Sequence record: PZ476263.1
DNA from: a phage
Reading direction: 5' to 3' (one strand)
Length of the DNA: 64,000 bases
Below are positions 22,753 through 62,912 of the stretch, in pieces. Below the pieces are notes generated by a model. The model worked only from the letters and a program-made list of their open reading frames with translations. It had not been told where the DNA came from and did no database searches. Every line of letters starts with the position of its first letter. Positions within the stretch are counted from its first letter, which is position 1. The position numbers and the translations under genes were made by a program.

Positions 22753-23651
22753 TTAGTGACAATCTCCCCAGCTGTATCCACACAAGTATTCCCCTGTGAT
22801 ATGCACTGGTGATTTCATCATCTTAGCTGCTTGTTCGACACAACGAACAACCATCTCTCCTACAGGGCAGTATGTAATAGTGAAGATACCATTTTCATCT
22901 GGATCACACTTAAACTTACCTTCCTTGACACAATGGCCTTCGAGGACCATCTTCTTAGCAAGACATGCCTCAACAAAAGCTTTTGCATCAGCTTCGTTAT
23001 CAAACTTCCATACCTTTTTGAACTTCTCCGGCACTTCAAGCTGGTACTCGTCATGGTAATAAATTGTACGACGTACACCTTGATCATACCAACCTTTTTT
23101 AACCAGCTGCCAATGCAACAGGATACCTACCAAGTCAAACATGGCAGCACCACCGTTCTGTTGGAAAGCGTTAAGCAATGAGTGTTTGGATCGGGTATAG
23201 ATCTTACGACCATCAAGACCATAAATGAATCGTTTACCGTTGGCTTCCCAAAACTTCTCAAGTGCTTCTTTACGACCTTTCAAACCTAAGTTGCTATCCC
23301 AAAATGCATCGATTACTGCTTGTGCTTTCTCCAATGAAATTCCAAGCATGGATGCAATCTTAGCTGCTTGAGCACCGTACATAATTCCATAGGTGATCCC
23401 CTTTCCTTCCCCACGAGATACTTTCTTACCCGCTGCCTTGGTATATGCTTCTGCGTTTCGACTATGAGCATCACCACTTTCCATAATTCGGAGGTAAGCA
23501 CCACCATCGAATTCATAACTTCCCCATGCAGCGACCATACCCTCTAAGTTAGAACCGTCTATACCTACCTGATACTTACCCTCGGGTACAGTGAAAAGGT
23601 CACGCATTTCTTTACCTAGAAGAACCTTAGGATCAGGCTTCGGCACGTTAG
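22753..23651 (-). CDS. DNA polymerase, family A (T7 gp5-like), 3' exon: palm/fingers from motif A to C-terminus
   Basis: GIDGSNLEGMV (motif A region), KGITYGIMYGA, GLDGRKIYTRSKHSLLNAFQQNGGA, YHDEYQLEV (motif C), C-terminus ...SWGDCH; parallels the T7 DNA polymerase C-terminal half as recalled; 5' boundary approximate. Confidence 0.85.
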
Positions 23652-24875
23652 CACAATATGTTCGTTAAAGGTCGCAACTCTTTAACCGGGATCGTATACA
23701 CCTGAAGAAATATCTCTTCACACTTTCGAGTACGATTCCTGTTTCTTTTGCTACGTCACAGAAATCTTTCCCATCAAGTATCATTTTTGTTATCTCTAGT
23801 TCCAACTCTTCTTTAGTTTTGTTTCTTAACTTACTGACCCCAAAAGTTTTATCTTCGGCAAATTTACCGATAAAAAATCTAACTGTCGGTTTCTCTAAGT
23901 TTAGGATCTCACAAATCTTTAAAAGAGTCGCACCTTTCCACCATAAAGATCTTGCTTCTTCTGCAAGATGTTTCTTTTCTTCCACTTCAGAAACACATTT
24001 CCCCATGTCGAAAGTTTTTAAGTATCTTGCTGCAAAGTGCCTTTCTTGTCCAAGGTCCAGAGAGATTTTTGCATACGAATCACCTGCCAGATATCTTTTA
24101 TGGATGTGCAGATACATCTCTCCATAGTTATCAAAGCCGGATTGTTTTGCTCTATTATCTCTTTTTGCCATTGAACTTCTTTCAGATGCGATAGTTTTTA
24201 TGGACTCACCAAAAGAGTTTCCAATTGCATCTGGACTAGGACTCACCGCTGAAAAAGTATTATTAGTCATGTTATAGAATTCTGTATTGTTGGCTGCATC
24301 ATTCTCTAAAAGAACTTTTTCTTCGATTTCACGAAGGAGATCTCTTTTGTCTACAACTTCCAACACCTCAGCTACAAATCTATGACCACTTTTTAAATCC
24401 TTTTTCATATCTGGATTGGAAGAGGACCCAAGATAAGGTTTTCCACTCTTAATCGAGATTATTGTGGGGATTCCATCCACATCTATCACTTTGCATTCAC
24501 TTTTACTTCCGATATATTTGTTCGGGTATTCTTCTTTATCGATGTTTTTCAAGAGATAAACAATGTTCATGTATACGTCCTCCGCTGTATCTTTCAACAC
24601 AGTTCAGACTATATCTTTGACACACTAAAGGATAGCTGAACCAATCTACCCCTAATGTATCACAAACCACTTCGATTGTCTACGCTTACAATCTACGCCT
24701 TCCGGCTAGTCGTTGAACCTTCTACCTGTCTGGTAGCTTGGCTGCTGATTGCCCAATCCTTTAACTTTTTAAACCTTCGCTTTGTATTCCTACTCGCAGT
24801 GGTATAAAGGCTCTAAGGGGTTCCCAGCAATTCAATTTGTTTTATACTGAGGCAGCTTTAGTTTACCACAGTGTG
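23652..24875 (-). mobile_element. group I intron interrupting the DNA polymerase gene, carrying a GIY-YIG homing endonuclease ORF
   Basis: All four conserved core elements on - strand RNA: P AAUUGCUGGGAAC (rc of 24820-24832), Q AAUCAGCAGCC (rc of 24740-24750), R GUUCAACGACUAGCC (rc of 24704-24718), S AAGAUAUAGUCUGAAC (rc of 24602-24617); polymerase reading frame resumes after the inserted ORF; exact splice sites not resolved. Confidence 0.75.
23665..24600 (-). CDS. GIY-YIG family homing endonuclease (intron-encoded)
   Basis: 311 aa; N-terminal MNIVYLLKNI...NKYIGSKSE matches the GIY...YIG module; Lys-rich C-terminal half; RBS GGAGGA; located inside the intron downstream of core element S. Confidence 0.75.
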   Translation of the reverse strand: MLKDTAEDVYMNIVYLLKNIDKEEYPNKYIGSKSECKVIDVDGIPTIISIKSGKPYLGSSSNPDMKKDLKSGHRFVAEVLEVVDKRDLLREIEEKVLLENDAANNTEFYNMTNNTFSAVSPSPDAIGNSFGESIKTIASERSSMAKRDNRAKQSGFDNYGEMYLHIHKRYLAGDSYAKISLDLGQERHFAARYLKTFDMGKCVSEVEEKKHLAEEARSLWWKGATLLKICEILNLEKPTVRFFIGKFAEDKTFGVSKLRNKTKEELELEITKMILDGKDFCDVAKETGIVLESVKRYFFRCIRSRLKSCDL

Positions 24876-26594
24876 TTTACGACGGCCTGTATTCGTTATT
24901 CCAGTATAACGTGCAGGTAATTTACCGTCCACCGCAAGTCGAGGATGGTTTAACCAACCTGTATCTACTTTATCCTCTTTCAAAGGATCAAGAACACTTC
25001 GACGGTTACGAAGAGATAGCCATTTTACAATCTGCTTTGCCATATCACCATCGACTCGCTCAAGGTTAGGACAAAGGCCCTGCTGATCCTTAAGCTGCGG
25101 TGATGTTGGTAATGCTCTTGCCTTCTTCCTGAAGAACTTATACATCTTCTCTTTATCTTGCCACTGCTTACCACTGATACCTAAACTTTTCAGAATCAGA
25201 TCGCGATATTCAGTCTGGTCAAGATCATCAATGTATTGACGAACAATGATATCGACTTCGTTATCGGGACGTTGTTTCTTAAACTGGTCCTTCGTCGCAT
25301 CTTTGGTTCGCCACAATGTTGGGACCCAACCCGCATCACGAATAAGGAATTTTTTAACGTCATCCTGATTACCAATACGCATCGGAATCATAATATCCGG
25401 CATCTTTTGATCTTTGATATCCATCAATGCACGGGCCATGTCTTCCGGTGGCAAAGGTACAAGATTTTCCTTTTTCACATTTTGAGAACGAATAAATTCA
25501 GCCATTTTGGATTCATCTTCTACACCATGCTCTACACAATACTTAATTGCAGCAGATGTGAGTGAACCATCGCCCTTAAACGGCTTACTTGGAGCGCCTT
25601 TAAATTCAAGAGCTTCCCAATTCACATTGTAACCTAACTTCTCTAACCATTTCCAGCCCGTACCAGAAAGAGATCCATCTCCTTTAAACGGCTTAGACGG
25701 GAAAGTAGGCTGTGCTGACTTGGACATCTCTTTCTTCGGCAGCTTTGGTTCAACCTCTTCTTCAATTTCTTTCATCATCGTATCAATACGATCACGCAAA
25801 GCTAAACCTTTCTCCACGTCGAAAGTAACACCCTGAATTTCTTGCTCAACCATCAAATAGTCGGTAAGCATACCTCGACGCAAGGCATTCTTCCAATTGA
25901 TGAGCTTCATCTTCTTCGGATCTTTGTCCGATTCATCTTTGTACATGAAACGTTTATCATCCGGCATAGAGTCACATGAAATTTCTTTCATGAGGGCATC
26001 CCATACCATTTCGTTGATGATTACGTCTTCAATAATACGATCACAATATTTCCACAAAGGGAGTCCACGCCAATCTTCGATTGCTACCTTCTGGTTTGCT
26101 ACTCGCATACCCCAAGCTTCAAGTCCATGAGGGCCTACAGGCTTCATTTTACCTGTAACTGGGTTCTTTACCATCTCGGGACAACCGCGCGGCAGAGGGC
26201 GATCTGGATACAGTGTACGGGACATTGAAAGGGTATCGAAGATGTTAACTTGTTTACCATTGATAGTCCCCATGCAACCAGGGTCTGCAAACATATCGTA
26301 TGTTGTTCCAAACATCTTTTTAAACAGCTGTAAGTCATAGCCGAAGATATTATGGATAGCAACAGCTTTTGGTTCAGTCACAAACCACTCATTAAGTTCT
26401 TCCAACTTACGGATCTTAAAGTTCTTACCTTTGGATTGAATAAACTTAACCGCTTGCTCGTAGCCTTCGCGGTTCGGATCGATAAAAATATTCCAATTGT
26501 CCTTTTTGTACTCTTTAAAAAGAACACAGTGAACAAGATCAACTTCTGTCAACAGGCCGTTAGCCTCTGCATCTCCAATAAACAAACCTTTCAT
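24858..26594 (-). CDS. DNA polymerase, family A (T7 gp5-like), 5' exon: 3'-5' exonuclease domain plus N-terminal part of polymerase domain
   Basis: FIGDAEANGL (Exo I), GPHGLEAWGMRV and GWVPT match T7 gp5 landmarks as recalled; ends ...TGRRKHTVVN just before the conserved PNL(Q)xIP region; last codons and stop probably intron-encoded. Confidence 0.85.
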   Translation of the reverse strand: MKGLFIGDAEANGLLTEVDLVHCVLFKEYKKDNWNIFIDPNREGYEQAVKFIQSKGKNFKIRKLEELNEWFVTEPKAVAIHNIFGYDLQLFKKMFGTTYDMFADPGCMGTINGKQVNIFDTLSMSRTLYPDRPLPRGCPEMVKNPVTGKMKPVGPHGLEAWGMRVANQKVAIEDWRGLPLWKYCDRIIEDVIINEMVWDALMKEISCDSMPDDKRFMYKDESDKDPKKMKLINWKNALRRGMLTDYLMVEQEIQGVTFDVEKGLALRDRIDTMMKEIEEEVEPKLPKKEMSKSAQPTFPSKPFKGDGSLSGTGWKWLEKLGYNVNWEALEFKGAPSKPFKGDGSLTSAAIKYCVEHGVEDESKMAEFIRSQNVKKENLVPLPPEDMARALMDIKDQKMPDIMIPMRIGNQDDVKKFLIRDAGWVPTLWRTKDATKDQFKKQRPDNEVDIIVRQYIDDLDQTEYRDLILKSLGISGKQWQDKEKMYKFFRKKARALPTSPQLKDQQGLCPNLERVDGDMAKQIVKWLSLRNRRSVLDPLKEDKVDTGWLNHPRLAVDGKLPARYTGITNTGRRKHTVVN

Positions 26595-51163: not shown

Positions 51164-51190
51164 GAGAGGCCAATGGCCTCTTTTCTTTTT
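51164..51190 (+). terminator. rho-independent terminator
   Basis: GAGGCC-aat-GGCCTC hairpin followed by TTTTCTTTTT. Confidence 0.7.
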
Positions 51191-51329
51191 GATACGGAAC
51201 CTATACTTACTAACCCTCCACGTACACGATCCGATAACGCCCCTATGCAAACATACGACAATTAATGTATGACTTACACAACCTCCTTAATCAATTAAAA
51301 TAGTCAAGCTTAAGACCCTAAAAAATTTT

Positions 51330-51520
51330 GAGAACTTGAGGGCTTTTTCATTTTCCAGATCGTATTTTCGATTACTCGAACGAGAACTTGAGAGCTTTCT
51401 CACTAGAAAATTTGGAACTTGAGGGCTTTTTCATTTTTGAGATCGTATTCTGGATTGAGAACTTGAGCTACAGGCCAGATACTTGAGGGCTTTTTCATTT
51501 TCCAAATCGTATTTTGAATT
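51330..51520. repeat. iteron-like direct repeats (five copies of GAACTTGAG(G/A)GCTTT...)
   Basis: Units at about 51330, 51381, 51414, 51457 and 51481; three share the longer form ACTTGAGGGCTTTTTCATTTT(C/T)(C/G)A(G/A)ATCGTATT; inside an ~800-bp ORF-free region. Confidence 0.6.
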
Positions 51521-51855
51521 GAAAAATTTTTCATATGCATAAAATTATATGCATGTCAAGGTCTGGAGGGATAAAATTTTACAGAGTTGAGAATTATTCT
51601 CATTTGCAGAATAGCGGGCAGGGGTGGTGATTATTTCGTGAAACCGTCCTCATCACCATGAATGTATAATAGCACCGTTCAGCTCAAGATTGCAAGAGGT
51701 ATTTTAATTTATTTTTCAATAAATTTTAAACGAATTACCGGCGATCAACCTTACATCTGGTCGCCCAGTATGTTAGCCCCGCCTTTACGCCGTGGGGTGG
51801 CGCTTCCTCTTCTGTATGTAAAACAATATAAGCCCGATCCTTGGGCTTGTCAAGA

Positions 51856-52122
51856 TTATTTTTTGTTTTCTTGCCAGGCTAGGACACCTAACCAGAAAAA
51901 GACGTTCCCTTTCTCGACCTTAGGTATATTACTTTCACCGCCACCGCTTTGCATCCATTCCGCACCGTTATTATACATCTCAAGCTCATAAAGATCGGTT
52001 ATCTTTGTATCCTTAAGGTTAAGGATTGTTTCAACCTTTAAGCCTGTTGCGCTCGCCACTTGGTGGACCGTTCCGCCTTGCCATTTTAAAGCGTGCATAA
52101 GGTGTAGTGTAGTAGTTGTCAT
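51856..52122 (-). CDS. putative HTH DNA-binding regulator
   Basis: 88 aa; helix-turn-helix-like TVHQVASATGLKVETILNL; diverges from rightward small-gene cluster. Confidence 0.45.
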   Translation of the reverse strand: MTTTTLHLMHALKWQGGTVHQVASATGLKVETILNLKDTKITDLYELEMYNNGAEWMQSGGGESNIPKVEKGNVFFWLGVLAWQENKK

Positions 52123-52329
52123 GTTGTGTTGCCCTTTCTTCTATTGTGCGCCCTAGTTGACGCGGTAAAAAGATATTAACTCTTCTTCCTATATAAAGCA
52201 AGTAAAAAGAAACATAAAAAAGATTGAAAATGTTGTTGACGTAGGAAAAAGGTTGGCGTAGTATTCATCTCATCGAACGGCGGCACAACTTAACGCCTAC
52301 ATTAATTAACGTTACTCACTAAGGGGTAA

Positions 52330-52518
52330 ATGATGGAAAGAAAAATTAATCAGCTTGCACCTGGTGCGGTAATGATTCACGAAGGATCAAAACACACTGT
52401 AGTAACTAATCGCCCACACAATGTAAGAGCAAACAAAAATATATTGCAGTTAAAGGATCGTTTTGGTATAGTACAGACTTACACGATTGAGTCAAACAAA
52501 TCAGTTATCGCACACTAA
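52330..52518 (+). CDS. hypothetical small protein
   Basis: 62 aa, RBS AAGGGG. Confidence 0.5.
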   Translation: MMERKINQLAPGAVMIHEGSKHTVVTNRPHNVRANKNILQLKDRFGIVQTYTIESNKSVIAH

Positions 52519-52535
52519 TTAAAAAGGTATACACT

Positions 52536-52871
52536 ATGAGTCAGCAAACTAAATATTTCATCGAAGGCGTTCAAGCGGCATCAACTGGTTTAGGTCCAGT
52601 AAGCCGTTATAAAAAGCCTGAGAACATCGCTGAATTTATGAAAGGGTATGAATCTGTAAGCCGTGAGGCAATGATACTGAGATTCGAATCTAATCCGGTA
52701 GGCAAGTCTAAAAATTCATACAGTGAAGCGCCCGACGTTGTTTATGTTGGTACAGTTAAGCAATGTAACGACCGATTGATCATGTTGCAGCAAAAAGACC
52801 GTAGCGGATTTTTTAAGGTCTACACTAATGATGGTAAACCTTATGAATACGAAAGCAAATATTTCAAATAA
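52536..52871 (+). CDS. hypothetical small protein
   Basis: 111-aa ORF. Confidence 0.5.
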   Translation: MSQQTKYFIEGVQAASTGLGPVSRYKKPENIAEFMKGYESVSREAMILRFESNPVGKSKNSYSEAPDVVYVGTVKQCNDRLIMLQQKDRSGFFKVYTNDGKPYEYESKYFK

Positions 52872-52886
52872 GTTTTAAAAAAGTAG

Positions 52887-52946
52887 TTGACAGCAAGAAA
52901 GTAAACAAGTATATTACACACATAGCGGCGGCAATGATGCAACCGC
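52887..52946 (+). promoter_or_regulatory. sigma70-like promoter plus conserved 5' leader hairpin
   Basis: TTGACA 52887-52892, 17 nt, TATATT 52910-52915; leader hairpin GCGG...CCGC 52925-52946. Confidence 0.6.
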
Positions 52947-52968
52947 AAGACAAAGAGAGATTATCAAG

Positions 52969-53184
52969 ATGGCTAAAGTAACTTTTAAAAAATCCCATAC
53001 CGTTTCCAATGTTGCAGCTGTAAACATGACTATGCCAACTTATAAAACACGCGACGCAGCTCGCAAGGTGGCAACGAAGATCCGCAGTGCTGGCTTGTCT
53101 GTCACGCAGCCTGTAAAAACGGAAAACGGTTGGCAATTGAATGTTAAGCATGTTGGCGGTACTCTTACAATCAACAAAGGCTAA
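52969..53184 (+). CDS. hypothetical small basic protein
   Basis: 71-aa ORF. Confidence 0.55.
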   Translation: MAKVTFKKSHTVSNVAAVNMTMPTYKTRDAARKVATKIRSAGLSVTQPVKTENGWQLNVKHVGGTLTINKG

Positions 53185-53254
53185 TAATAATACTAATCTT
53201 TCATAGCCGGATCGCTGGTCCGGCAAATAACCAACAATATAAAAGGAAACAAAG

Positions 53255-53407
53255 ATGGCTTATTCCAACAACGTAGAAAAAATCAAAGCAAACAAAGATC
53301 GTAAAGCCTGGAATGAAACGGTGATCCGTAAAGGTGCAAAACTGAATAAGACCAAACGTGATCGCACTGATAAACGTGCCTTTGTTGAAATGGAAACAGA
53401 GATCTAA
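53255..53407 (+). CDS. hypothetical small basic protein (not in ORF track)
   Basis: 50-aa ORF with RBS AAAGGAAA. Confidence 0.4.
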   Translation: MAYSNNVEKIKANKDRKAWNETVIRKGAKLNKTKRDRTDKRAFVEMETEI

Positions 53408-53408
53408 C

Positions 53409-53699
53409 ATGAAAAAATTTATTATCGGCGCGGCGGCGGTGTTTCTTTCCTTGAATTGCCAGGCTAATGATACAAAATATCTAAGATGTAACGCCGTCAT
53501 GACCGATGAACAATCAGGGAACACGTTTAAAAAGCCGTTCGAAATAAATCCGGCTGCATTTAATGACGGTGTATTCTACCAAAAGAAAGGGAAAGGCAGT
53601 ACAACGATCTACTATGACGCATCAAAAAACCGAGGGGATATCAGTATCATGGTTGGCCCTGAGGTTGTAGTGTCCGGTTACTTCTCCTGTGAGAAATAA
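53409..53699 (+). CDS. small secreted protein
   Basis: N-terminal signal peptide MKKFIIGAAAVFLSLNCQA; start placed at 53409 (track ORF starts 53358). Confidence 0.5.
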   Translation: MKKFIIGAAAVFLSLNCQANDTKYLRCNAVMTDEQSGNTFKKPFEINPAAFNDGVFYQKKGKGSTTIYYDASKNRGDISIMVGPEVVVSGYFSCEK

Positions 53700-53703
53700 A
53701 GCA

Positions 53704-53732
53704 AGGCCCCTCCCCTGGGGCCTTTTTCTTTT
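53704..53732 (+). terminator. rho-independent terminator
   Basis: AGGCCCC-tccc-ctGGGGCCT hairpin followed by TTTTTCTTTT. Confidence 0.7.
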
Positions 53733-53760
53733 ATGTCCCCCAAAATATTTAAAAATGTTG

Positions 53761-53788
53761 TTGACAGTAAAATTGATTCTGATAAGAT
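53761..53788 (+). promoter_or_regulatory. sigma70-like promoter driving ncRNA-like element copy 1
   Basis: TTGACA 53761-53766, 16 nt, TAAGAT 53783-53788. Confidence 0.55.
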
Positions 53789-53794
53789 GTATCC

Positions 53795-53869
53795 CATCAG
53801 GACGGGGAACGAAGTAAACACTTCCCGTTAAGTAGTCCAGGAGTAAGACATACGAAAAACTCCCCTGAT
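53795..53869 (+). ncRNA. candidate small structured RNA, copy 1
   Basis: No ORF; outer ATCAGG/CCTGAT pairing and inner ACGGGGA/UCCCGU hairpin; near-identical second copy at 56493-56569 with a different loop. Confidence 0.45.
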
Positions 53870-53887
53870 AAAAAGATTTAAAAGTGG

Positions 53888-53942
53888 TTGACAAGAAATT
53901 AAAAACTGTTAAGATGTATCACATAGGGCGGCAATGAGGCCG
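53888..53942 (+). promoter_or_regulatory. sigma70-like promoter plus leader hairpin
   Basis: TTGACA 53888-53893, TAAGAT 53910-53915, hairpin GCGGC-aatgag-GCCGC 53926-53942. Confidence 0.6.
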
Positions 53943-53965
53943 CAGATAACAAAGAGATAAAGAAA

Positions 53966-54337
53966 ATGGCTAAAAATATCAATGTTGCAATGTACGCTGA
54001 ATCCACCAACGCAGATAATGTAAAATTTAAAATTAGCGAGATTGAAGCGGTTCACATTTTGGCTAAACGTTGGTTTCAATCTTCATACGGTAATACTTAT
54101 TTCTCTTTGTCTGTTGATATCGAGATCAGCGGTAAAATGATTGAAGTGGTAAACGTGCCGTTCCAATATGGCTACGGGGATCACTTTGACACTGTGGCAA
54201 TGGAAGAATTTAGCAAGGTTATTGATATGGAAAGTAAAGAATTTTTAAAAGGTAATTACCTGACACGTTTTTGTAAAGATAATGATGTATCTGTTTACTG
54301 CAATGCAGTTGATGTAAAACGTAAAAAAGATTTATAA
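53966..54337 (+). CDS. hypothetical small protein
   Basis: 123-aa ORF. Confidence 0.55.
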   Translation: MAKNINVAMYAESTNADNVKFKISEIEAVHILAKRWFQSSYGNTYFSLSVDIEISGKMIEVVNVPFQYGYGDHFDTVAMEEFSKVIDMESKEFLKGNYLTRFCKDNDVSVYCNAVDVKRKKDL

Positions 54338-54343
54338 TTGTTG

Positions 54344-54404
54344 TTGACAAGATAATTAAAAAGCGTAGAATGTACAACATAGAGGGCGGGAATGGTTCCC
54401 GCCT
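54344..54404 (+). promoter_or_regulatory. sigma70-like promoter plus leader hairpin
   Basis: TTGACA 54344-54349, TAGAAT 54366-54371, hairpin GGCGGGAA...TTCCCGCC 54384-54404. Confidence 0.6.
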
Positions 54405-54425
54405 CACTAAAAAGAGATTAAAATC

Positions 54426-54650
54426 ATGGCTATTATCACCACCAAAATCACAAATACTGTTGGCGAGTCTTTTGTAGTTGCATTTATCACCAATCAACCT
54501 GTTGATGATATTCATTGCACTGTCAACAATTTTGCAGAAAATAATTTTGGTCAATGGTCATCTGTTGAGTACATTGAAACGGTCCAGGTTGCAGCGTTCA
54601 AGGTTAGCCAACATGTTGATTATATTGTTGCACTTGATGAATTAAATTAA
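54426..54650 (+). CDS. hypothetical small protein
   Basis: 74-aa ORF. Confidence 0.5.
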   Translation: MAIITTKITNTVGESFVVAFITNQPVDDIHCTVNNFAENNFGQWSSVEYIETVQVAAFKVSQHVDYIVALDELN

Positions 54651-54657
54651 AAAGTAG

Positions 54658-54714
54658 TTGCAAACAATCTTAAAAAGCGTATAATGTTTTACATAGAGCG
54701 GGAACTATTCCCGC
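54658..54714 (+). promoter_or_regulatory. sigma70-like promoter plus leader hairpin
   Basis: TTGCAA 54658-54663, TATAAT 54680-54685, hairpin GCGGGAA...TTCCCGC 54698-54714. Confidence 0.6.
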
Positions 54715-54736
54715 CAGATATAACGAGGAAAGTGTA

Positions 54737-54979
54737 ATGGAAACCATTTTAATCAAAGACACTGCAACTACTGTTACTTATGATAATGATTGTATTATCC
54801 CTGGTACTGATTACGGCGAACGTGTACCCGTTCAAGTCGAGATTGACACTACATACATTGACCAGGCTGAAAAGTGTATCACTATTGTTATTGGTGAATA
54901 TCGTTTTCTACCAGAAGAGATCCAAAAATGGCAGTATATGATTGACCGTTCGAAATTAGTTGCACAAAGTTTAAAATAA
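54737..54979 (+). CDS. hypothetical small acidic protein
   Basis: 80-aa ORF. Confidence 0.5.
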   Translation: METILIKDTATTVTYDNDCIIPGTDYGERVPVQVEIDTTYIDQAEKCITIVIGEYRFLPEEIQKWQYMIDRSKLVAQSLK

Positions 54980-54982
54980 TAC

Positions 54983-55042
54983 TTGCAATTAGTTTTCAGT
55001 ACTGTACAATGTTTTACATCGAGAGCGGTAGTATTGCCGCTC
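54983..55042 (+). promoter_or_regulatory. sigma70-like promoter plus leader hairpin
   Basis: TTGCAA 54983-54988, TACAAT 55005-55010, hairpin GAGCGG...CCGCTC 55023-55042. Confidence 0.6.
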
Positions 55043-55062
55043 ACAGCAAAGAGAAATCTAAA

Positions 55063-55305
55063 ATGAAAAAATTATCTTCCATCGTCAATCATAATGAAAT
55101 TTTCATTAATGAAAAATCCTACGCATGCATTCAACTAAAAGAGATGAAAGGTGATCGCCGTGTAACTGTCGTTCGCAAAGTTAAAAGTAAGCCTTTTAGT
55201 AATTACTCTATCGATACCGTTCGCATCAATAACGAAGATTATTTGATCGATAGTCAAATAACTTGCAGTCCCACAGCTTCAGTTAGTGCACCATATCACT
55301 ATTGA
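55063..55305 (+). CDS. hypothetical small protein
   Basis: Start placed at ATG 55063 downstream of promoter/hairpin (track starts 55009). Confidence 0.5.
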   Translation: MKKLSSIVNHNEIFINEKSYACIQLKEMKGDRRVTVVRKVKSKPFSNYSIDTVRINNEDYLIDSQITCSPTASVSAPYHY

Positions 55306-55330
55306 CAGAAGGGCCGAGAGGCCCTATAAT
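55302..55330 (+). promoter_or_regulatory. consensus sigma70 promoter with GC hairpin in spacer
   Basis: TTGACA 55302-55307, 17-nt spacer containing GGGCC-gaga-GGCCC, TATAAT 55325-55330. Confidence 0.6.
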
Positions 55331-55364
55331 ACAAACCACCTTAACAAAGAATGAGAGAAACAAA

Positions 55365-55571
55365 ATGATTAATGAAAAACAGATTAACGATGTTCGTGAT
55401 GAGGCTTACTGTACTGCTATTACCAATGGATCACGCGCCGCTTTCAATCTTGTTGTTGACTTGTACCCTGAGCAAGCCGAAAACATTCTTTACCAAGTCA
55501 GTGTAAAGTTGGAAGCAACCGGACACACAAAGTTATCAAACGGAATTGACAAGTTGATCAAAACACTTTAA
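55365..55571 (+). CDS. hypothetical small protein
   Basis: Start placed at ATG 55365 (MINEKQ) after the promoter; track ORF starts 55302. Confidence 0.5.
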   Translation: MINEKQINDVRDEAYCTAITNGSRAAFNLVVDLYPEQAENILYQVSVKLEATGHTKLSNGIDKLIKTL

Positions 55572-55653
55572 TATCTGGTTAACTTTTATCAATGCCGTCG
55601 TTATAGTGGCGGCATGAATAAAAGAAATCATTCTACAACGTAAAGGTTGAAAA

Positions 55654-55965
55654 ATGGATCAAGTCATCCCAATGATAGGTTTAATCGGCTTAGGCTACAT
55701 CGCTACCAGTTTAGCTATGAGTTACATCAATAAGAGAAGAGATAAAATGTTTTGTTACTTTGAATATACTTACAACGGTAAAACAGGGTCATCCCGTGAC
55801 TATGGCCCAATGTTAGAGATTGATGCGGTTGGTGCTATGCGGTATCGAGAGAGCTTAGGGGCAAAGATAACGTTTGAAGTATACCGATCTACCGAAGAGG
55901 AATTATTTTCGATCATTGATGAACGTGCTTACATGCAAGAGCAACAAGATAAACGCCGTAAATAA
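55654..55965 (+). CDS. small membrane-anchored protein
   Basis: 103 aa; N-terminal hydrophobic helix IPMIGLIGLGYIATSLAM. Confidence 0.5.
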   Translation: MDQVIPMIGLIGLGYIATSLAMSYINKRRDKMFCYFEYTYNGKTGSSRDYGPMLEIDAVGAMRYRESLGAKITFEVYRSTEEELFSIIDERAYMQEQQDKRRK

Positions 55966-56014
55966 TTAATATTGTAAATAATTAACAAATCAAACAACAA
56001 GCAAGGTAAACATA

Positions 56015-56158
56015 ATGAATACAAATATTAACCGTGAGAAAGTAAAAAGCAAAAACAAAATGGACTATGAAGAAGTAAAAGCAATGAAGAAAAGCAAAGA
56101 TAACAAACAACAACGCCGCAGGACGCGCTACAGTTGGGAAAACATAGACATCCTTTAA
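56015..56158 (+). CDS. hypothetical small basic protein (not in ORF track)
   Basis: 47-aa Lys/Arg-rich ORF. Confidence 0.35.
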   Translation: MNTNINREKVKSKNKMDYEEVKAMKKSKDNKQQRRRTRYSWENIDIL

Positions 56159-56190
56159 GATTGTATAAGTTGAAACATAAATCATCACAA

Positions 56191-56217
56191 AGGCCCTTTA
56201 AGGGCCTTATTTCATTG
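56191..56217 (+). terminator. rho-independent terminator
   Basis: AGGCCC-ttta-AGGGCCT hairpin followed by T-rich tract. Confidence 0.6.
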
Positions 56218-56227
56218 GAGGGAATAC

Positions 56228-56455
56228 ATGATTAATCCATATAGCTTAACAGAGTTGATCCGACTTCTGAAATCTAAGCCGCTAGGGACGGCTTATACTT
56301 ATATTGTGATGGAGGGTAAGGATTATGCAGGGGTAAGCCGATCTATCACGGCAACGGCCTCTAGGGAGGGCCTAAAGGTGAGTATTTCGCAGATCCTTAT
56401 TGTTGATCCTTCCACATGTGAGACGAAAGAAGCTGTAAAAATAATTAGAAAATAG
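56228..56455 (+). CDS. hypothetical small protein
   Basis: 75 aa, RBS GGAGGG. Confidence 0.5.
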   Translation: MINPYSLTELIRLLKSKPLGTAYTYIVMEGKDYAGVSRSITATASREGLKVSISQILIVDPSTCETKEAVKIIRK

Positions 56456-56458
56456 TAT

Positions 56459-56486
56459 TGACACTGTATTGGAATAGTGTAGAATT
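56459..56486 (+). promoter_or_regulatory. sigma70-like promoter driving ncRNA-like element copy 2
   Basis: TTGACA 56459-56464, 16 nt, TAGAAT 56481-56486. Confidence 0.55.
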
Positions 56487-56492
56487 TATTAC

Positions 56493-56569
56493 ATCAGGAC
56501 GGGGAACAAAAACAAATAGTTCCCCGTTAAGTAGCCCAGGAGTAAGGCAGACGAAAAACTCCCCTGATA
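56493..56569 (+). ncRNA. candidate small structured RNA, copy 2
   Basis: Same element as 53795-53869; perfect ACGGGGAA/TTCCCCGT stem; loop differs while stems are conserved. Confidence 0.45.
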
Positions 56570-56576
56570 AAAAGAT

Positions 56577-56604
56577 TGACAACAAATAGTAAATAAGTAC
56601 AATA
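56577..56604 (+). promoter_or_regulatory. sigma70-like promoter
   Basis: TTGACA 56577-56582, 16 nt, TACAAT 56599-56604. Confidence 0.55.
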
Positions 56605-56654
56605 AGACTTAATGAGACGGGCAAAGGTCCAAAACAACAACAAGGTAACTTATC

Positions 56655-56891
56655 ATGATTGAACAAATCAAAACTACTAAACCAAATTTTAACGGTGATG
56701 TTTCTCACTTTATTGGTGACAATGAAAGAGGAACACCCTACGCTGCGGTAACAGTTCAGCCAAATGGTGATTATTGGTTTACCTTGTACGGGTCTTATTC
56801 CTTTGGACGTTCGGCACATGAAAAGATCTTACAAGTAGTTAAGCCTACAGGAAAGAACATCACGGCAGAAAAATATTTTACTAAACATTAA
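56655..56891 (+). CDS. hypothetical small protein
   Basis: 78-aa ORF. Confidence 0.5.
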   Translation: MIEQIKTTKPNFNGDVSHFIGDNERGTPYAAVTVQPNGDYWFTLYGSYSFGRSAHEKILQVVKPTGKNITAEKYFTKH

Positions 56892-56898
56892 AAAGTAC

Positions 56899-56956
56899 TT
56901 CCAAACTAAGTTTAAAAGCGTATAATGTTTTACATCAAGAGCGGCAAGGGCCGCTC
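56899..56956 (+). promoter_or_regulatory. sigma70-like promoter plus leader hairpin
   Basis: TTCCAA (weak -35) 56899-56904, TATAAT 56921-56926, hairpin GAGCGGC-aagg-GCCGCTC 56939-56956. Confidence 0.55.
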
Positions 56957-56978
56957 ACACAAACAAAGAGAAATTATC

Positions 56979-57230
56979 ATGACTAACAAAACTAAAACTA
57001 CTAAAACTTATAACGGTCACAAAAACAAAACTCATTGGAATGTTTCCTTATGGATTAATAACGGTGAGTCATTGTATCGGCTTGCTCAAAATTGCATCGC
57101 TCAAAGTAAAACGAAAGATATTGCGGCGGAATGTATGTACCGCAGATTAAAAGCCAACGGTACTACTACAACGCCGGACGGATTCAAGTATAGCACTACG
57201 GCGATCCGTGCTGCAATGGTTGGAATGTAA
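56979..57230 (+). CDS. hypothetical small basic protein
   Basis: Start placed at ATG 56979 downstream of promoter/hairpin (track starts 56925). Confidence 0.5.
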   Translation: MTNKTKTTKTYNGHKNKTHWNVSLWINNGESLYRLAQNCIAQSKTKDIAAECMYRRLKANGTTTTPDGFKYSTTAIRAAMVGM

Positions 57231-57286
57231 CATTCAATACTGAGTTAATGGCGGGATTAGTTCCCGCCTTTGCGGAGAAATATCTA

Positions 57287-57574
57287 ATGAGCAAAGTAAT
57301 TGACTATAAAGTGTTAACTAAATCATTGTCAATCAGTGAGTGCAACGATGGTTTTTGGATGTACGATGAAACACGCGGCATGAATCTAGCTATGAAGGCT
57401 AAAACGGCTGAGGCGGCGTATGTGCAAGCCCTGGAATACTACCAGAGACGTTTAAAGGAAGTAGAAAACAATTATCAGAATCTCAAAGAGAAAGTAGATC
57501 ATTTCGTTGGTCAATTCGTTGACGATGACGAGGAAGACGGGCACTACTGCAACCGCTGCGGATCTTACAATTAA
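57287..57574 (+). CDS. hypothetical small protein
   Basis: Start placed at ATG 57287 after leader hairpin GGCGGGAttagTTCCCGCC (57250-57268); track starts 57248. Confidence 0.45.
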   Translation: MSKVIDYKVLTKSLSISECNDGFWMYDETRGMNLAMKAKTAEAAYVQALEYYQRRLKEVENNYQNLKEKVDHFVGQFVDDDEEDGHYCNRCGSYN

Positions 57575-57596
57575 ATAAATAAATAAATAAAAAAGT

Positions 57597-57658
57597 TTGA
57601 CAACGTTTTAAATTAGTGTAATATGTATCACATAGAGCGGTGGAATGGTCTACCGCTC
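57597..57658 (+). promoter_or_regulatory. sigma70-like promoter plus leader hairpin
   Basis: TTGACA 57597-57602, TAATAT 57619-57624, hairpin GAGCGGT...ACCGCTC 57635-57658. Confidence 0.6.
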
Positions 57659-57678
57659 ACAAATAAGAGATTATCAAA

Positions 57679-57858
57679 ATGACTATCATCGCAAAAACTG
57701 AAATAATCGGCCTGGATTCTATCATCATGACGTTTGAAGAACAAAAAGGTATGTATGTAGTTTCCTATAGTAATTATGTTCGGGAGTATGAAACGGTAGA
57801 CGAAGCCTTTGAAAGTTACATTCGTCAGGTGAATAAAGCATACGACGACTACCGCTAA
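57679..57858 (+). CDS. hypothetical small protein (not in ORF track)
   Basis: 59-aa ORF directly downstream of promoter/hairpin. Confidence 0.45.
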   Translation: MTIIAKTEIIGLDSIIMTFEEQKGMYVVSYSNYVREYETVDEAFESYIRQVNKAYDDYR

Positions 57859-57945
57859 AATATATTACCAGTACTATTAAAGATATTGACAATGTTTGAT
57901 AGTACTGTATGATTGATTTTATCAAGACTCCTAAAGGATCACAAA

Positions 57946-58089
57946 ATGAAAATTTGCCAATGTGGTAAAAAGTCTATCCCTGGTTTAAAACGTGGTGTTT
58001 CTCTTTGTCAGTATCATTATAATGTTAAAATATGGGGTAAACAGTGGGCCGACCAAGTGGAAGCATCAAAGAAAGTAAAAAGTAATTAA
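57946..58089 (+). CDS. hypothetical small Cys-containing protein (not in ORF track)
   Basis: 47-aa ORF MKICQCGKK...CQYHY; promoter TTGACA/TATGAT upstream. Confidence 0.35.
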   Translation: MKICQCGKKSIPGLKRGVSLCQYHYNVKIWGKQWADQVEASKKVKSN

Positions 58090-58180
58090 AATATTTAAAC
58101 AGTTGACATTGGTTTATGTGGTCGGGTACAATGACCACATAGACAAATGAAACAAACAATATAAATTAACGAGGTTTATC

Positions 58181-58492
58181 ATGATCTTTGAAGTTTTTGC
58201 GGGTATGTGTTTTTATGGTGCTGCCGCCGTTCGTCAATGCGATGATTATGTAGTTGAATCATATAATGATGTTTTAACTTGTGAGATCGTAACTAGTGAA
58301 TACTCACGGGATCGCCGTTGGATTAATCCAGCCTGTATCGACTCTCTGGAAGCTATGCCAGAAGGTCAAGAATTAACAGAAGAAGAAACAGAAGAGGTTA
58401 GAGAGGTATTATCTTACATGCTCGATAACTTAGATTCTAGTGCACTGCAAAGAATGTATGCAGTAGCACAAGAAAGCGAACTGACCAACTGA
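58181..58492 (+). CDS. hypothetical small acidic protein
   Basis: 103-aa ORF; promoter TTGACA/TACAAT with hairpin ATGTGGTC...GACCACAT over the -10. Confidence 0.5.
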   Translation: MIFEVFAGMCFYGAAAVRQCDDYVVESYNDVLTCEIVTSEYSRDRRWINPACIDSLEAMPEGQELTEEETEEVREVLSYMLDNLDSSALQRMYAVAQESELTN

Positions 58493-58519
58493 CCAAAACA
58501 GATAACAAGGTAAACAAAA

Positions 58520-58702
58520 ATGAAAGCATCAATGATGGTTGCAACTGTAAACATTATCATAGGTAACGGCACGGGACACCATGAGATCATAAAAAACAAG
58601 GCTTACAGCCTTGCAACCTTAAAGGCGGATATGCGCTTATCCCTGGGGCAAATCAAAGCTTACTTTCGTGAAGGTCATCACAAAAAGGTAGTAAATTCTT
58701 AA
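58520..58702 (+). CDS. hypothetical small protein
   Basis: 60-aa ORF. Confidence 0.45.
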   Translation: MKASMMVATVNIIIGNGTGHHEIIKNKAYSLATLKADMRLSLGQIKAYFREGHHKKVVNS

Positions 58703-58721
58703 AATATTTCTTTACTTGTGG

Positions 58722-58750
58722 GCCTATCTTCTTTAAGATAGGCTTTATCA
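58722..58750 (+). terminator. rho-independent terminator
   Basis: GCCTATCTT-cttt-AAGATAGGC hairpin followed by T-rich tract. Confidence 0.55.
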
Positions 58751-58782
58751 GTTTTAGAATACACAAACAAAGAGGGTACAAA

Positions 58783-59076
58783 ATGAAAAAGGCAAATCAA
58801 TATTTCTTCCTGAATGCCGTTAATGATCATATCGTTGTTAGCATGTTGGTTAATTCGAATCCAATGATGCTAACATTTTGTGACGAGGCATACACTTTAC
58901 CAAAACATAAAAAAGCATTTTTAAAAGTGGTTGCAACTCCAAATAAAACAGGGTATATTCTTGACTATAAGGTCACAGAAGGTCAGAAAGTGATTGCAGT
59001 CGGTGAAAGCACCGAGATCCCTAAGGATGAGATCTACGGCGTGATCGCTGGTTTTGTGAATGCAGTGTTTGAATAA
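58783..59076 (+). CDS. hypothetical small protein
   Basis: 97 aa, RBS AGAGGG. Confidence 0.5.
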   Translation: MKKANQYFFLNAVNDHIVVSMLVNSNPMMLTFCDEAYTLPKHKKAFLKVVATPNKTGYILDYKVTEGQKVIAVGESTEIPKDEIYGVIAGFVNAVFE

Positions 59077-59102
59077 TCATACAACCATAAAGAGACAAGA
59101 TC

Positions 59103-59324
59103 ATGAATAAAGTAACTGAATTTTTATATCAATCATTGGCAACTTTACTGTTTACCGTTGCAGGTATCGCCCTTATCAGTGGTGTTGGTGCAATGTTTAT
59201 CGGTTACTTCACTTTTACCGCTATTACTTTCATCGTTTGTCCTGTAATGGCATACGCCGCTACAAAAATTGTAATCTATGTGGATGATAAAATTTATCCT
59301 AAAAAGTCATTGCATACTAAGTAA
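59103..59324 (+). CDS. small membrane protein
   Basis: 73 aa, two hydrophobic helices. Confidence 0.5.
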   Translation: MNKVTEFLYQSLATLLFTVAGIALISGVGAMFIGYFTFTAITFIVCPVMAYAATKIVIYVDDKIYPKKSLHTK

Positions 59325-59387
59325 GATTAAAGTATATTACATACATTGAAGCGGTGAACGGTTCACCGCACAAAAAGAGTAAATAAA

Positions 59388-59540
59388 ATGTTTAAGTTAA
59401 TAACCTGGGAACATCAATCATCTTCACCAATCACCCGCACCTTTTTTGATCTGTGTACCGCTTATCGTTTAGCTAAAGGTGGTTACTATAAAGCCCAGAT
59501 TATTGATGAAAACAATGTAATACTGTACGAATTCAAATAA
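59388..59540 (+). CDS. hypothetical small protein (not in ORF track)
   Basis: 50-aa ORF downstream of leader hairpin GCGGTGAAC...GTTCACCGC (59349-59370). Confidence 0.4.
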   Translation: MFKLITWEHQSSSPITRTFFDLCTAYRLAKGGYYKAQIIDENNVILYEFK

Positions 59541-59742
59541 AAAACTTTAAAAAAGTAGTTGACACGAATAACAGATAGTATATAATTACTATCAACAAGA
59601 CGGGAAACAGGTTCCCCACTAAATAATCTTACAGGAGTCCGTAAAATGATGGCAATCTTCTTAATCTCTCTTCTGGTCGCTGTTTCTTCTGCAACTGCTG
59701 CCGCTGTTCTGTATGATACCCGTTACAATGAGAACTGATAAA

Positions 59743-59970
59743 ATGCTAAACATGAAAAACGTTGTCGGAAAGACTGAGACACTAAAAGCGCTTAATCCTG
59801 GTCAATCAACGGTGTGGATCTGCACTGAGGCCGGAAAGGTCGAAAGAGATATGAGATTATTTACTGCGACCGCTTGCAGATTAAAATTTAAGATTGTTCA
59901 AAGTAGCGCGATGATTGTAAAGGTAAATGATTTACCAGTAGAATCCATTATTATTACCCGTATAGAGTGA
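59743..59970 (+). CDS. hypothetical small protein
   Basis: Start uncertain (ATG 59713 or 59743); a 30-codon hydrophobic mini-ORF (59647-59738) lies upstream. Confidence 0.45.
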   Translation: MLNMKNVVGKTETLKALNPGQSTVWICTEAGKVERDMRLFTATACRLKFKIVQSSAMIVKVNDLPVESIIITRIE

Positions 59971-59982
59971 AAGAGGCCATAA

Positions 59983-60291
59983 ATGTATAAAGACTATATT
60001 TTCAACGATAAATATAACAATGTGATTGAAATCAGCGAACAATCGAAAGATGCGGCGGTAAATCGTATCGGGCAAGTTTTAGGATTATCAGCAAAGGATC
60101 TTATTCTAGTGCATGATCTTATTCTAGTGCATGAGTCTGATAATCCTGATTACCTGGCTGCAAGGGATAGCGGCTTGAATCATGAGTCTGCAATAGAGGT
60201 CGCAAATGGTGAGATATCACTAGATGACGCTCTCGGGGCAATGGATATGGTTAGCGAGTGTAATTTTATGCTTATGGAGGCTTCAAAATGA
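59983..60291 (+). CDS. hypothetical small acidic protein
   Basis: 102 aa; internal 22-bp perfect direct repeat (aggatcttattctagtgcatga twice, 60095-60138). Confidence 0.5.
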   Translation: MYKDYIFNDKYNNVIEISEQSKDAAVNRIGQVLGLSAKDLILVHDLILVHESDNPDYLAARDSGLNHESAIEVANGEISLDDALGAMDMVSECNFMLMEASK

Positions 60292-60480
60292 ATCCTAACG
60301 GCCTTGAATTTAAAGCTATTCCCAACCTTGCCGGATTGCGTAACAAATCGGCACGAAATCAAAGAAGATTGGAGAAAAAGAAGAATAATAGAAAATAATT
60401 GTTGACACCCTTCCTTAAATCCTTTAAATTGCTCCACATAGGGCGGCAATAGTGCCGCTCACTAATCTGGAGTTATCACC

Positions 60481-60882
60481 ATGACTTTTACAATCCTTTC
60501 TTATGCTGACGTAGCAAACATCGCTAAAACTTTTGGACCTCGGGCACTGGAATATGCCGTATCTAATGGTAATCTGACAAAGGAGCAATGCTACCTGATC
60601 GGCAGTTGTAAACGTTGGGCGGTATCCCGTAACATCGAGATTGAAAACGTTAATGATGGGAATATCGAGTACACTGTTGATGCCGTATTCCAATCTATTG
60701 ACCTGGGCGGTATCTATAATACCAATCTTAACGATGTTCGTATTATCCGCACTGGCTTCGGTGCTTATGATGTATCTATCCGTGAAGCTATGGACAAGGG
60801 ATACATTAGCAAGGATCAATTAGCTTACATCATGCAACAAACTAAGGAACGTAACGAAGTAAAGGCTATCTTAGGCTTGTAA
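60481..60882 (+). CDS. hypothetical protein
   Basis: 133-aa ORF downstream of promoter TTGACA plus leader hairpin GCGGCA...TGCCGC. Confidence 0.55.
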   Translation: MTFTILSYADVANIAKTFGPRALEYAVSNGNLTKEQCYLIGSCKRWAVSRNIEIENVNDGNIEYTVDAVFQSIDLGGIYNTNLNDVRIIRTGFGAYDVSIREAMDKGYISKDQLAYIMQQTKERNEVKAILGL

Positions 60883-60900
60883 TCCGGTAGTCAGCTTACA

Positions 60901-60926
60901 AGGCCCCTTCATGGGGCCTTTCTTTT
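60901..60926 (+). terminator. rho-independent terminator
   Basis: AGGCCCC-ttcat-GGGGCCT hairpin followed by TTCTTTT. Confidence 0.7.
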
Positions 60927-60969
60927 ATGTGTTGAGCAAAAATAAATTAAAAATAATTCAAAAAGACTA

Positions 60970-60997
60970 TTGACTCAACCGCAAAAAAGGGTAGAAT
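60970..60997 (+). promoter_or_regulatory. sigma70-like promoter driving long ORF-free leader
   Basis: TTGACT 60970-60975, 16 nt, TAGAAT 60992-60997. Confidence 0.55.
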
Positions 60998-61003
60998 GTA
61001 TTA

Positions 61004-61287
61004 CATCAAGACGATGAAGCAGCGATGTAAAGTAGTCGCCCTGGTGAGTAAGTTCGGTGAAGGTTAATCGACCTAAGTAACCGAAAGTTAGTAAGGATAA
61101 GGACTCTGGGATTGAATACGTCATAGACGGGCTACACTATCCAGTCAGTGAAGAGGTCGGCTGAGCAATGACCCTACGGCTTTACGAAGACCGTGCTATC
61201 CTGTGACTAACAACAAAAACAGTAAAAAGCAGTAAGAAACACAAAGTAAAGAATTTTAATCAAATCACAAAATAAAAGGTTGACATC
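61004..61287 (+). ncRNA. candidate structured RNA / long 5' leader (about 280 nt, ORF-free)
   Basis: Promoter-proximal region with no ORF over 17 codons; many local stem-forming segments; the TTGACA at 61279 is too close to the ATG to serve the downstream gene, so 61288 is probably transcribed through this leader. Confidence 0.4.
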
Positions 61288-61527
61288 ATGCAAACGATCA
61301 TTACTAAGTTTTTGGCCCCTACTAATACCCGTTGCGCTCGCATCATTGCAAAATGCTGGTTGACAAATATCACGATTGCTTATCCAGTAGCGGAGATCAA
61401 CGAAGCCCACAAAATTGCAGCTCAGCAATTGATCGTTAAGTTAAAGATGACGACGGGCAATGATTGGAATATCGTTGCAAGTGGTGAAACACCGGACGGA
61501 TCAGGTTATGCATTTATCATCAAATAA
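61288..61527 (+). CDS. hypothetical small protein
   Basis: 79 aa, RBS AAAGG. Confidence 0.5.
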   Translation: MQTIITKFLAPTNTRCARIIAKCWLTNITIAYPVAEINEAHKIAAQQLIVKLKMTTGNDWNIVASGETPDGSGYAFIIK

Positions 61528-61609
61528 GTGTTGACAAGCTAGGTAATAAATAGTAAATTGATGTTCTGGCGGCGCAACGGTGCACGGCATAGGTTAAGGA
61601 CCAATTATC

Positions 61610-62907: not shown

Positions 62908-62912
62908 ATCGG

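Follow-up and report, generated by a model that had tools for sequence, protein, structure and literature searches.

Is the stretch that begins at position 56,458 of this phage DNA one more promoter and 5' hairpin among many, or does it encode an RNA with a structure and a role of its own? The window, by which we mean the whole 64,000-nt stretch analysed (record PZ476263.1), comes from a Vequintavirinae-like myovirus whose structural genes are about 79% identical to those of LTH01, UPEC06, A73 and A7_1. Its part from 46 to 64 kb is an early region of small same-strand ORFs, in which 89 promoter-like sites were counted vs 57.7 expected, and almost every ORF there has its own sigma70-type promoter and GC-rich 5' hairpin, arranged as repeated cassettes. 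Such an early cassette (46000-64000, plus strand) has a sigma70 promoter, then the motif ACAUnnAG and a GC-rich 5' hairpin (GGCGGGAA...UUCCCGCC), with a ribosome-binding site in front of a small ORF, as seen at 54344-54437 and 57597-57690 (+). The cassettes comprise repeat families D1-D4 and D7, and the promoter and the helices P1 and P2 of the element studied here fit their pattern; the linker/P3 core of the element forms repeat family D5, which is extra to the cassette and element-specific.

The features at the locus, designated copy 2, are the following.

56458..56485 (+): sigma70-type promoter of copy 2, TTGACA, 16-nt spacer, TAGAAT
56493..56498 (+): P1 5' strand, AUCAGG, paired with 56563-56568 in the MFE fold
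56499..56527 (+): P2 hairpin, ACGGGGAAC, 11-nt variable loop, GUUCCCCGU, in the MFE fold
56528..56538 (+): linker UAAGUAGCCCA, with the PK1 5' strands G56531-U56532 and G56534-C56535-C56536
56539..56562 (+): P3 hairpin, GGAGU, 14-nt loop AAGGCAGACGAAAA, ACUCC
56563..56568 (+): P1 3' strand, CCUGAU, followed by the A-rich spacer AAAAAGA
56576..56603 (+): second sigma70-type promoter directly 3' of the element, TTGACA (56576-56581), 16-nt spacer, TACAAT (56598-56603)
56655..56891 (+): small downstream early gene, 78 aa, PHROG 9227, unknown function, with no specific tie to the element

The -35 hexamer TTGACA of copy 2 occupies 56458-56463 and the -10 hexamer TAGAAT 56480-56485, and the predicted transcription start, A56493, lies 7 bases past the -10 box and is the first base of the P1 strand AUCAGG. 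The same -10-to-+1 geometry is found at the annotated T7 A1 start (GATACT-7 nt-AUCGAG). The plus-strand RNA 56493-56575 has an MFE of -25.9 kcal/mol (z = -4.5; no shuffle among 200 reached this stability), and its MFE fold is exactly the three-helix P1/P2/P3 structure, 76 nt in size. P2 is formed by nine perfect pairs between 56499-56507 and 56519-56527, around a loop whose length and sequence differ among homologues, and in P3 the strand at 56539-56543 pairs with that at 56558-56562. The P2-P3 linker (UAAGUAGCC) pairs with the P3 loop as a pseudoknot, PK1, whose loop partners are G56546-G56547-C56548 and A56551-C56552. Promoter direction, gene orientation and G-U pairing all indicate that the plus strand is the RNA strand; homologues show G-U pairs that would be C-A mismatches if read on the opposite strand.

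Two further matches were noted within copy 2. Both the P2 loop (56512-56520) and the spacer of the following promoter (56582-56590) contain the 9-mer ACAAATAGT, which may be chance or possibly a trace of cassette recombination. The sequence AGUUCCCCG is common to copy 2 and the E. coli type I-E CRISPR repeat; a reading of the element as a mimic of that repeat was rejected, since homologues do not retain the match and the stems come in the opposite order.

A first copy lies 2.7 kb away, with these features.

53703-53734: intrinsic terminator 5' of the copy 1 promoter
53761..53788 (+): promoter of copy 1, TTGACA, 16-nt spacer, TAAGAT
53796..53869 (+): element copy 1, with the same P1, P2, linker, P3 and PK1 as copy 2

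The two copies are 92% identical over a 60-nt core, the middle PK1 pair being U:A in copy 1 and C:G in copy 2, and copy 1 is a true homologue of copy 2. A 22-nt core pattern occurred twice in the window vs 0.00 expected, and a covariance model of the core (R1) scored 51.2 and 47.4 bits on the two copies, with the next window match at 9.5 bits. No third, divergent copy was found in the window with patterns or with the covariance model at full sensitivity, and the linker and P3 sequences were found nowhere else in the window by patterns and covariance model. The hairpin at 59594-59620, considered as a third copy, is merely a generic 5' hairpin resembling P1/P2. The copies are single, and no tandem array of the element was found. 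Copy 1 directly follows a terminator and copy 2 does not; consistent placement right after terminators, as predicted by operon-start antitermination, was therefore rejected.

The initial annotation, made from sequence alone, had called this locus a second copy of a promoter-driven structured RNA with the same architecture as a copy at 53761-53869. Both claims held: promoter orientation, the fold at +1 and helix covariation across phage families (see below) agree, and copy 1 is homologous. The TTGACA-16-TAGAAT promoter was confirmed with its -35 box starting at 56458 and not at 56459, and the further promoter placed before gene 56655..56891 was confirmed with its start at 56576 and not at 56577, both -35 boxes having been off by one base. 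The inner stem, described as a perfect 8-bp pairing, was confirmed and has one A-U more, giving 9 pairs. What failed was the reading of CTCCCCTGAT as one block; it consists of two strands, ACUCC (P3 3', 56558-56562) and CCUGAU (P1 3', 56563-56568). The same annotation overlooked PK1, the most conserved part; it also overlooked the likeness of P1/P2 to the generic promoter and 5'-hairpin cassette, the specific part being the linker/P3 core, and the fact that the element is not private to this genome and has relatives that include the T7 A1-to-A2 leader.

To describe the core across its relatives, we used a 40-nt family core, AAGUAG-N-C...P3...AAG-N'-C....GAAAA, with the full consensus AAGUAG-N-C-(P3 5' strand)-(U)AAG-N'-C-N4-GAA(A/C)A-(P3 3' strand), which both window copies fit with zero mismatches. 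Alignment A2 contained 41 distinct 40-nt cores, and the structure tested was P3 plus the linker/loop pseudoknot, with the PK1 scheme G-U with A-C and G-N-C with G-N'-C. In this alignment 96.2% of the paired cells were paired vs 21-43% when the 3' partners were slid; five pairs varied on both sides, and the covariation score was not reached by any shuffle. For the P3 pairs, two-sided changes were seen in 5-8 of 41 sequences, with at least four compensated versions in all (GGAG/CUCC, CCAG/CUGG, CCUG/CAGG and CUUG/CAAG). The middle PK1 pair took all four Watson-Crick forms (AU 32, UA 5, CG 3 and GC 1; n = 41), the G-C pair in the second pseudoknot segment was G-U in seven cases, and AAGUAG was invariant in 41/41 cores. 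Positions fixed in the search patterns are partly invariant by construction; all paired positions were left free. The member filter demanded a standard pair at N:N'. Without it, the sole exception in a phage context was EmilieFrey, and the other failures were unrelated metagenome matches without P3. Among the phage copies found, this one (MZ501063, locus L006, 432-470) alone is mismatched at the covarying PK1 pair, with C:A; its near-twin outra has C:G at the same pair. A loop-E or sarcin-ricin reading of AGUA...GAA was rejected, as the covariation fits the G-U/A-C plus G-N-C/G-N'-C pseudoknot better.

These data bear on the simplest alternative, that there is no RNA function and the locus is a plain promoter and stem-loop cassette, or a short ORF (a TTG-initiated frame of 43 aa at 56458..56589). 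In its favour, the promoter, P1 and P2 are like those of generic cassettes, and some GenBank records annotate short ORFs over the element. Against it, three helices show compensatory changes, and the P2 and P3 loops have indels of 1-2 nt, not multiples of three; the element is also conserved far above its surroundings, and the annotated ORFs vary in frame and strand between records. The short-ORF reading is ruled out by the indels and the covariation, and we regard the no-function explanation as a whole as very unlikely.

The distribution of relatives shows how far the core extends. A blastn search with the 86-nt element gave 103 places in 45 large myovirus records at 84-98% identity, the records being Asteriusvirus jumbo phages, Justusliebigvirus and unclassified Vequintavirinae. 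The element keeps this identity in surroundings of which, over 12 kb, only about 14% has a match in any phage, and the copies are always intergenic or beneath dubious short ORFs, amid small early genes. Each Asteriusvirus carries two type A copies, or four where the terminal repeat is duplicated, and in addition a divergent copy, type B, which lies 5' of the 121Q gene 277 family; type B-like copies were found as well in phage LTH01, Erwinia jumbo phage Hallingskeid and environmental jumbo contigs. In type B the linker and the P3 loop are kept, P3 is CCAGU/ACUGG, CCUG/CAGG or CUUGU/ACAAG, and the P2 hairpin is missing, the structure being closed by GACG/CGUC and P1. Compensated P1 versions occur among the type B relatives (AUCAAG/CUUUGAU; CAUC/GAUG vs CAUG/CAU). 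The type B unit of 121Q (KM507819, locus L002, 4544-5289) consists of a terminator, promoter, type B element, gene 277 (160 aa, PHROG 27871) and terminator, and is the sole case in which the element resembles the 5' UTR of one specific conserved gene.

T7-like contigs were recovered with the pattern AAGTAG N C N5 GTAAG N C N4 GAAAA, in which only the unpaired consensus is fixed. In T7 the core lies at nt 552-590, which corresponds to about +55 to +93 in the A1 transcript, the first early one; annotated promoters lie on either side, A1 (498) and A2 (626), and the core region is without annotation in the T7 record (NC_001604). A blastn search with the T7 segment matched 489 T7-like podovirus records in Studiervirinae, Melnykvirinae and Slopekvirinae, whose hosts include Escherichia, Klebsiella, Salmonella, Yersinia, Enterobacter, Erwinia, Kosakonia and Aeromonas. 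Like the window copies, family members have a sigma70-type early promoter at most about 100 nt upstream and share the strand of the early genes, and the order promoter, element, promoter is common to the window and T7 (A1, element, A2). The distance from the left end of the genome is 3.4-6.9 kb in the Asteriusvirus records that start at the terminal repeat and 0.55 kb in T7. Genes beside different copies belong to eight PHROG families, all of unknown function; because the downstream genes differ between copies, the element is not a gene-specific riboswitch.

We also built a covariance model from T7-type sequences only (R2). The two window copies ranked first and second with this model (25.8 and 20.4 bits, E-values 2.7e-4 and 7e-3), the next window match having an E-value of 1.8, and the model aligned its own P2, linker, P3 and 3' flank onto them. 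Since a T7-only model finds both copies, the homology between the window and T7 is independent of models seeded with the window.

Comparative analysis of the T7-type copies revealed a second pseudoknot, PK2, in which the six-base loop of a short P2 hairpin pairs with the 5-6 bases directly 3' of P3. Its variants include GUCAA/UUGAC, GUCAAG/CUUGAC, GUCAUC/GAUGAC, GUCAC/GUGAC, GAUUAG/CUAAUC, GUGAA/UUCAC and UCGGU/ACCGA, and in alignment A3 each of the five core pairs varied on both sides, with 149 of 150 cells paired. The PK2 3' strand of T7 (UUGAC; locus L059, 189-193, corresponding to T7 nt 588-592) is the RNA copy of the A2 -35 hexamer, and where the A2 -35 hexamer differs, the P2 loop is altered to match (also in loci L062, L073, L056 and L024); the same bases therefore serve as promoter element and as RNA helix. 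The P1 3' strand CCUGAU of the window copy aligns to this PK2 3' strand. The 3' flank after P3 pairs with the 5' end as P1 in type A, with GACG in type B and with the P2 loop in T7-type copies, which indicates that an invariant core is closed by three peripheral solutions. As a separate observation, T7-like leaders carry a boxA-like CGCUCUUUAACAA downstream of A2/A3 (locus L059, 412-424, corresponding to T7 nt 811-823; also L062 and L066); no boxA-like sequence was found near the window elements.

Outside phages the element was not found in 5,426 E. coli genomes, and in 185,579 bacterial and archaeal species genomes (one per species) the only real matches were on two short T7-like contigs, 21 of the 23 pattern matches in the species genomes being without P3 and pseudoknot pairing. 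Pattern matches in soil metagenomes (about 10 near-identical loci, including L030) were taken as chance, the match in L030 lying inside an opposite-strand 462-aa ORF. In an IMG/VR contig of 207,855 bp (L105), the sequence AAGUAGCCCCCUGCAUAAGGCGGUCGAAAAUAGG at about 2057-2100 has a C:G pseudoknot pair and a weak 4-bp P3, and it is possible that this is a distant family member in another jumbo-phage contig.

Taken together, the element is very likely the 5'-terminal domain of an early transcript synthesised by the sigma70 RNA polymerase of the host, with a compact pseudoknotted fold. With similarly high confidence, the closing helix P1 is stacked on P2 and the linker UAAGUAG-N-C is paired to the P3 loop, so that the P3 loop AAG-N'-C-xxAC-GAAAA and the linker form an H-type pseudoknot with the A-rich GAAAA positioned for a helix groove. 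We consider it very probable, too, that the core defines a phage-restricted RNA family across unrelated phages of enterobacteria and their relatives, carried by Vequintavirinae-like phages, Justusliebigvirus, Asteriusvirus, Erwinia jumbo phages and T7-like podoviruses.

Comparison with known RNA families returned nothing for this element. At the gathering threshold, the sole window match to Rfam 15 (4227 models, among them riboswitches, ribozymes, ToxI and sRNAs) was a group I intron elsewhere; a permissive Rfam scan around the element gave at best 15-17 bits (E about 0.9), and the T7 leader had no Rfam match at E up to 10. No tRNA or tmRNA was found in the window with ARAGORN. No prior description was found in Rfam 15 or in the literature searched, including searches with literal sequences, in which matches to the T7 fragment sequence were only promoter or 'internalisation' cassette uses; the older subscription literature on T7 early RNA was not covered, and an earlier mention is possible. 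The intron (Rfam RF00028, 73.8 bits) lies at 24585-24952 (-), between the ORFs 24858..26594(-) and 23665..24600(-), and the next ORF past these flanking ORFs, 22753..23646(-), has a family A DNA polymerase domain; a polymerase gene is likely split or interrupted by the intron.

These comparisons bear on two further rivals. According to the first, the element is a small-molecule or ion aptamer, acting as a riboswitch-like sensor or a sponge. H-type pseudoknots of this sort are typical of small aptamers, e.g., preQ1-II and SAM-II, and the conserved core with its H-type pseudoknot, A-rich third strand and many invariant unpaired bases would suit one. Against this, the downstream genes are unrelated (the eight PHROG families), neither a terminator nor ribosome-binding-site sequestration overlaps the element and no U-tract terminator lies 3' of the fold, type A copies have a promoter next to them, and no Rfam riboswitch matched even at E = 10. 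The second rival is a self-cleaving ribozyme that processes the early transcript, for which the compact double-pseudoknot architecture of the T7-type copies speaks. Against a ribozyme, no Rfam ribozyme model matched, and in classical T7 early-RNA work the sizes of the leader fragments were reportedly accounted for by the RNase III site and the starts at A1, A2 and A3, without any additional cut. Both explanations appear very unlikely.

The data establish the promoter and the fold, the covariation and distribution of the element and its lack of linkage to any gene, but there are no functional data for any member of the family, and the role proposed here is inferred. In the mechanism ranked first, the nascent element RNA would fold on leaving the polymerase and bind a host machine, most likely the elongating host RNA polymerase or a factor on it such as Rho, and this binding would make transcription from that promoter more processive, with less pausing and less termination, as HK022 put RNAs do. 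The proposal rests on the element being always promoter-proximal, gene-indifferent and located in first-entering DNA, and on its carriers sharing a host and few proteins. Binding of some host component is probable because the carriers share a host and not proteins, and because the core presents a folded surface on which many unpaired bases are invariant. The host target, the action in cis and the effect on processivity are each inferred, and we hold this reading of a host-directed, put-like leader only tentatively, as slightly more doubtful than not even though it leads the alternatives.

Several observations speak against put-like action, among them a fold that differs from that of put (see below). 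Nearly every gene of the early region has its own promoter, and the need for antitermination is therefore not obvious. The Asteriusvirus type B copy stands in a one-gene unit between terminators, upstream terminators are inconsistent in the window (present before copy 1, absent before copy 2), and the T7 A2 and A3 transcripts cover the same genes without the element. The full promoter directly 3' of the element would suit an independent RNA gene equally.

The closest rival is a trans-acting decoy or takeover RNA that would be cut out of, or active within, the early transcript and would sequester or redirect a host protein, for instance a nuclease, an RNA chaperone, a translation factor or a defence protein. 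An RNA would be the first phage product available after infection, as translation is unneeded. This explanation is supported by the element having its own strong promoter followed at once by another, as a separate gene in a cassette array would, and by an AU-rich single strand 3' of P1 that is a potential RNase E-type cut site. The conservation of structure and of unpaired invariant bases is typical of a protein- or ligand-binding surface, and the presence in phages that share a host but few proteins and the absence from host genomes fit as well. Against it, the RNA is without a terminator or a defined 3' end and has no known binding partner, and type B copies are simply the 5' UTR of a gene. 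A decoy remains possible and is nearly as credible as the put-like reading.

Less probable is a stabilising or translation-tuning leader, in which the folded 5' domain would guard against 5'-end-dependent decay or a host RNase, or would set translation of the first gene. It is supported by the fold beginning at +1 in types A and B, by the GC-rich hairpins with which the generic early 5' UTRs of the region also open, and by the type B copies lying 40-60 nt upstream of a ribosome-binding site. However, a simple hairpin does the same job at other genes, which leaves the invariant pseudoknot core found across phage families unexplained; T7-type elements begin at about +45 of the transcript and not at +1, and the second promoter of type A yields transcripts without the element. 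We therefore consider this explanation unlikely.

The preferred put-like reading and its decoy rival differ in what they would mean. If the target is the polymerase, the element would be a second put-type RNA, structurally unrelated to the first, and may bear on T7 genome entry driven by host transcription; as a processivity RNA it would show that put-type regulation reaches well beyond HK022. If it is a decoy, it would be a new RNA tool for takeover or anti-defence. Few templates in transcription research are used as much as the T7 A1 promoter with its transcribed leader, and a conserved, covarying double pseudoknot lies there unannotated. The same core starts early transcripts in jumbo phages and rV5-like myoviruses. 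These phages have hardly any proteins in common with T7, and the shared core points to an RNA function that is directed at the host and has passed repeatedly from phage to phage. A bolder reading follows, for which the arguments on either side seem to us evenly balanced: the element would represent a new class of host-directed phage RNA, made early and spread horizontally, that reprograms or blocks a host machine without a phage protein. In this reading transfer would span podoviruses, rV5-like myoviruses and jumbo phages, and the machine would be RNA polymerase, Rho, or a defence or decay factor. In practical terms, the family offers an object of 40-80 nt with natural compensatory variants for asking how phages control the first seconds of transcription by host polymerase.

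To place the element among known systems, we compared it with four kinds of RNA. In the PeSL cassettes of T4-type phages, a sigma70 early promoter with a 5' stem-loop is reported to recur in the gaps separating small early genes (Arbiol, Comeau and Krisch 2010), and the many promoter/hairpin units of the window are like them, the P1/P2 part of the element resembling one. The conserved part of the element is instead the linker/P3 core, and PeSL units are not known to have a conserved pseudoknot core or conservation across phage families. Type III antitoxin RNAs are protein-binding pseudoknots of 35-45 nt from phage or host, and pseudo-ToxI copies in phages act as anti-defence decoys. The element is likewise a small pseudoknotted RNA; ToxI, in contrast, consists of tandem 34-45 nt repeats next to a toxN-type gene, or is copied from such a locus, whereas the element is single. 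ToxI gave no Rfam match here, the neighbouring ORFs had no toxN-type domain, and no counterpart was found in the bacterial genomes. With preQ1-II, SAM-II and the T4 gene 32 leader the element shares a short hairpin loop paired with a flanking strand and an A-rich third strand, but it differs in having no sequence or model match, no tie to a gene and no known ligand or protein.

The put RNAs of HK022 come nearest. They measure about 70 nt, are encoded directly 3' of early promoters, two per genome, and bind elongating polymerase to suppress pausing and termination, through the beta' zinc-binding domain, with no phage protein needed (PMC9378689). Like putL and putR, the element is an RNA of about 70-80 nt that lies just 3' of early sigma70 promoters, is present more than once in a genome, has a conserved tertiary structure and lacks a specific gene partner. 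The put fold is a V made of two long stem-loops; its stem I has a minor-groove triplex, and a pseudoknot is lacking (PMC9378689), whereas the element has a three-helix or double-pseudoknot fold and another consensus, and there are no polymerase activity data for it. The element fails the structural definition of put and is not filed as a put RNA; in position and logic, by analogy and with no sequence comparison behind it, it is closest to put.
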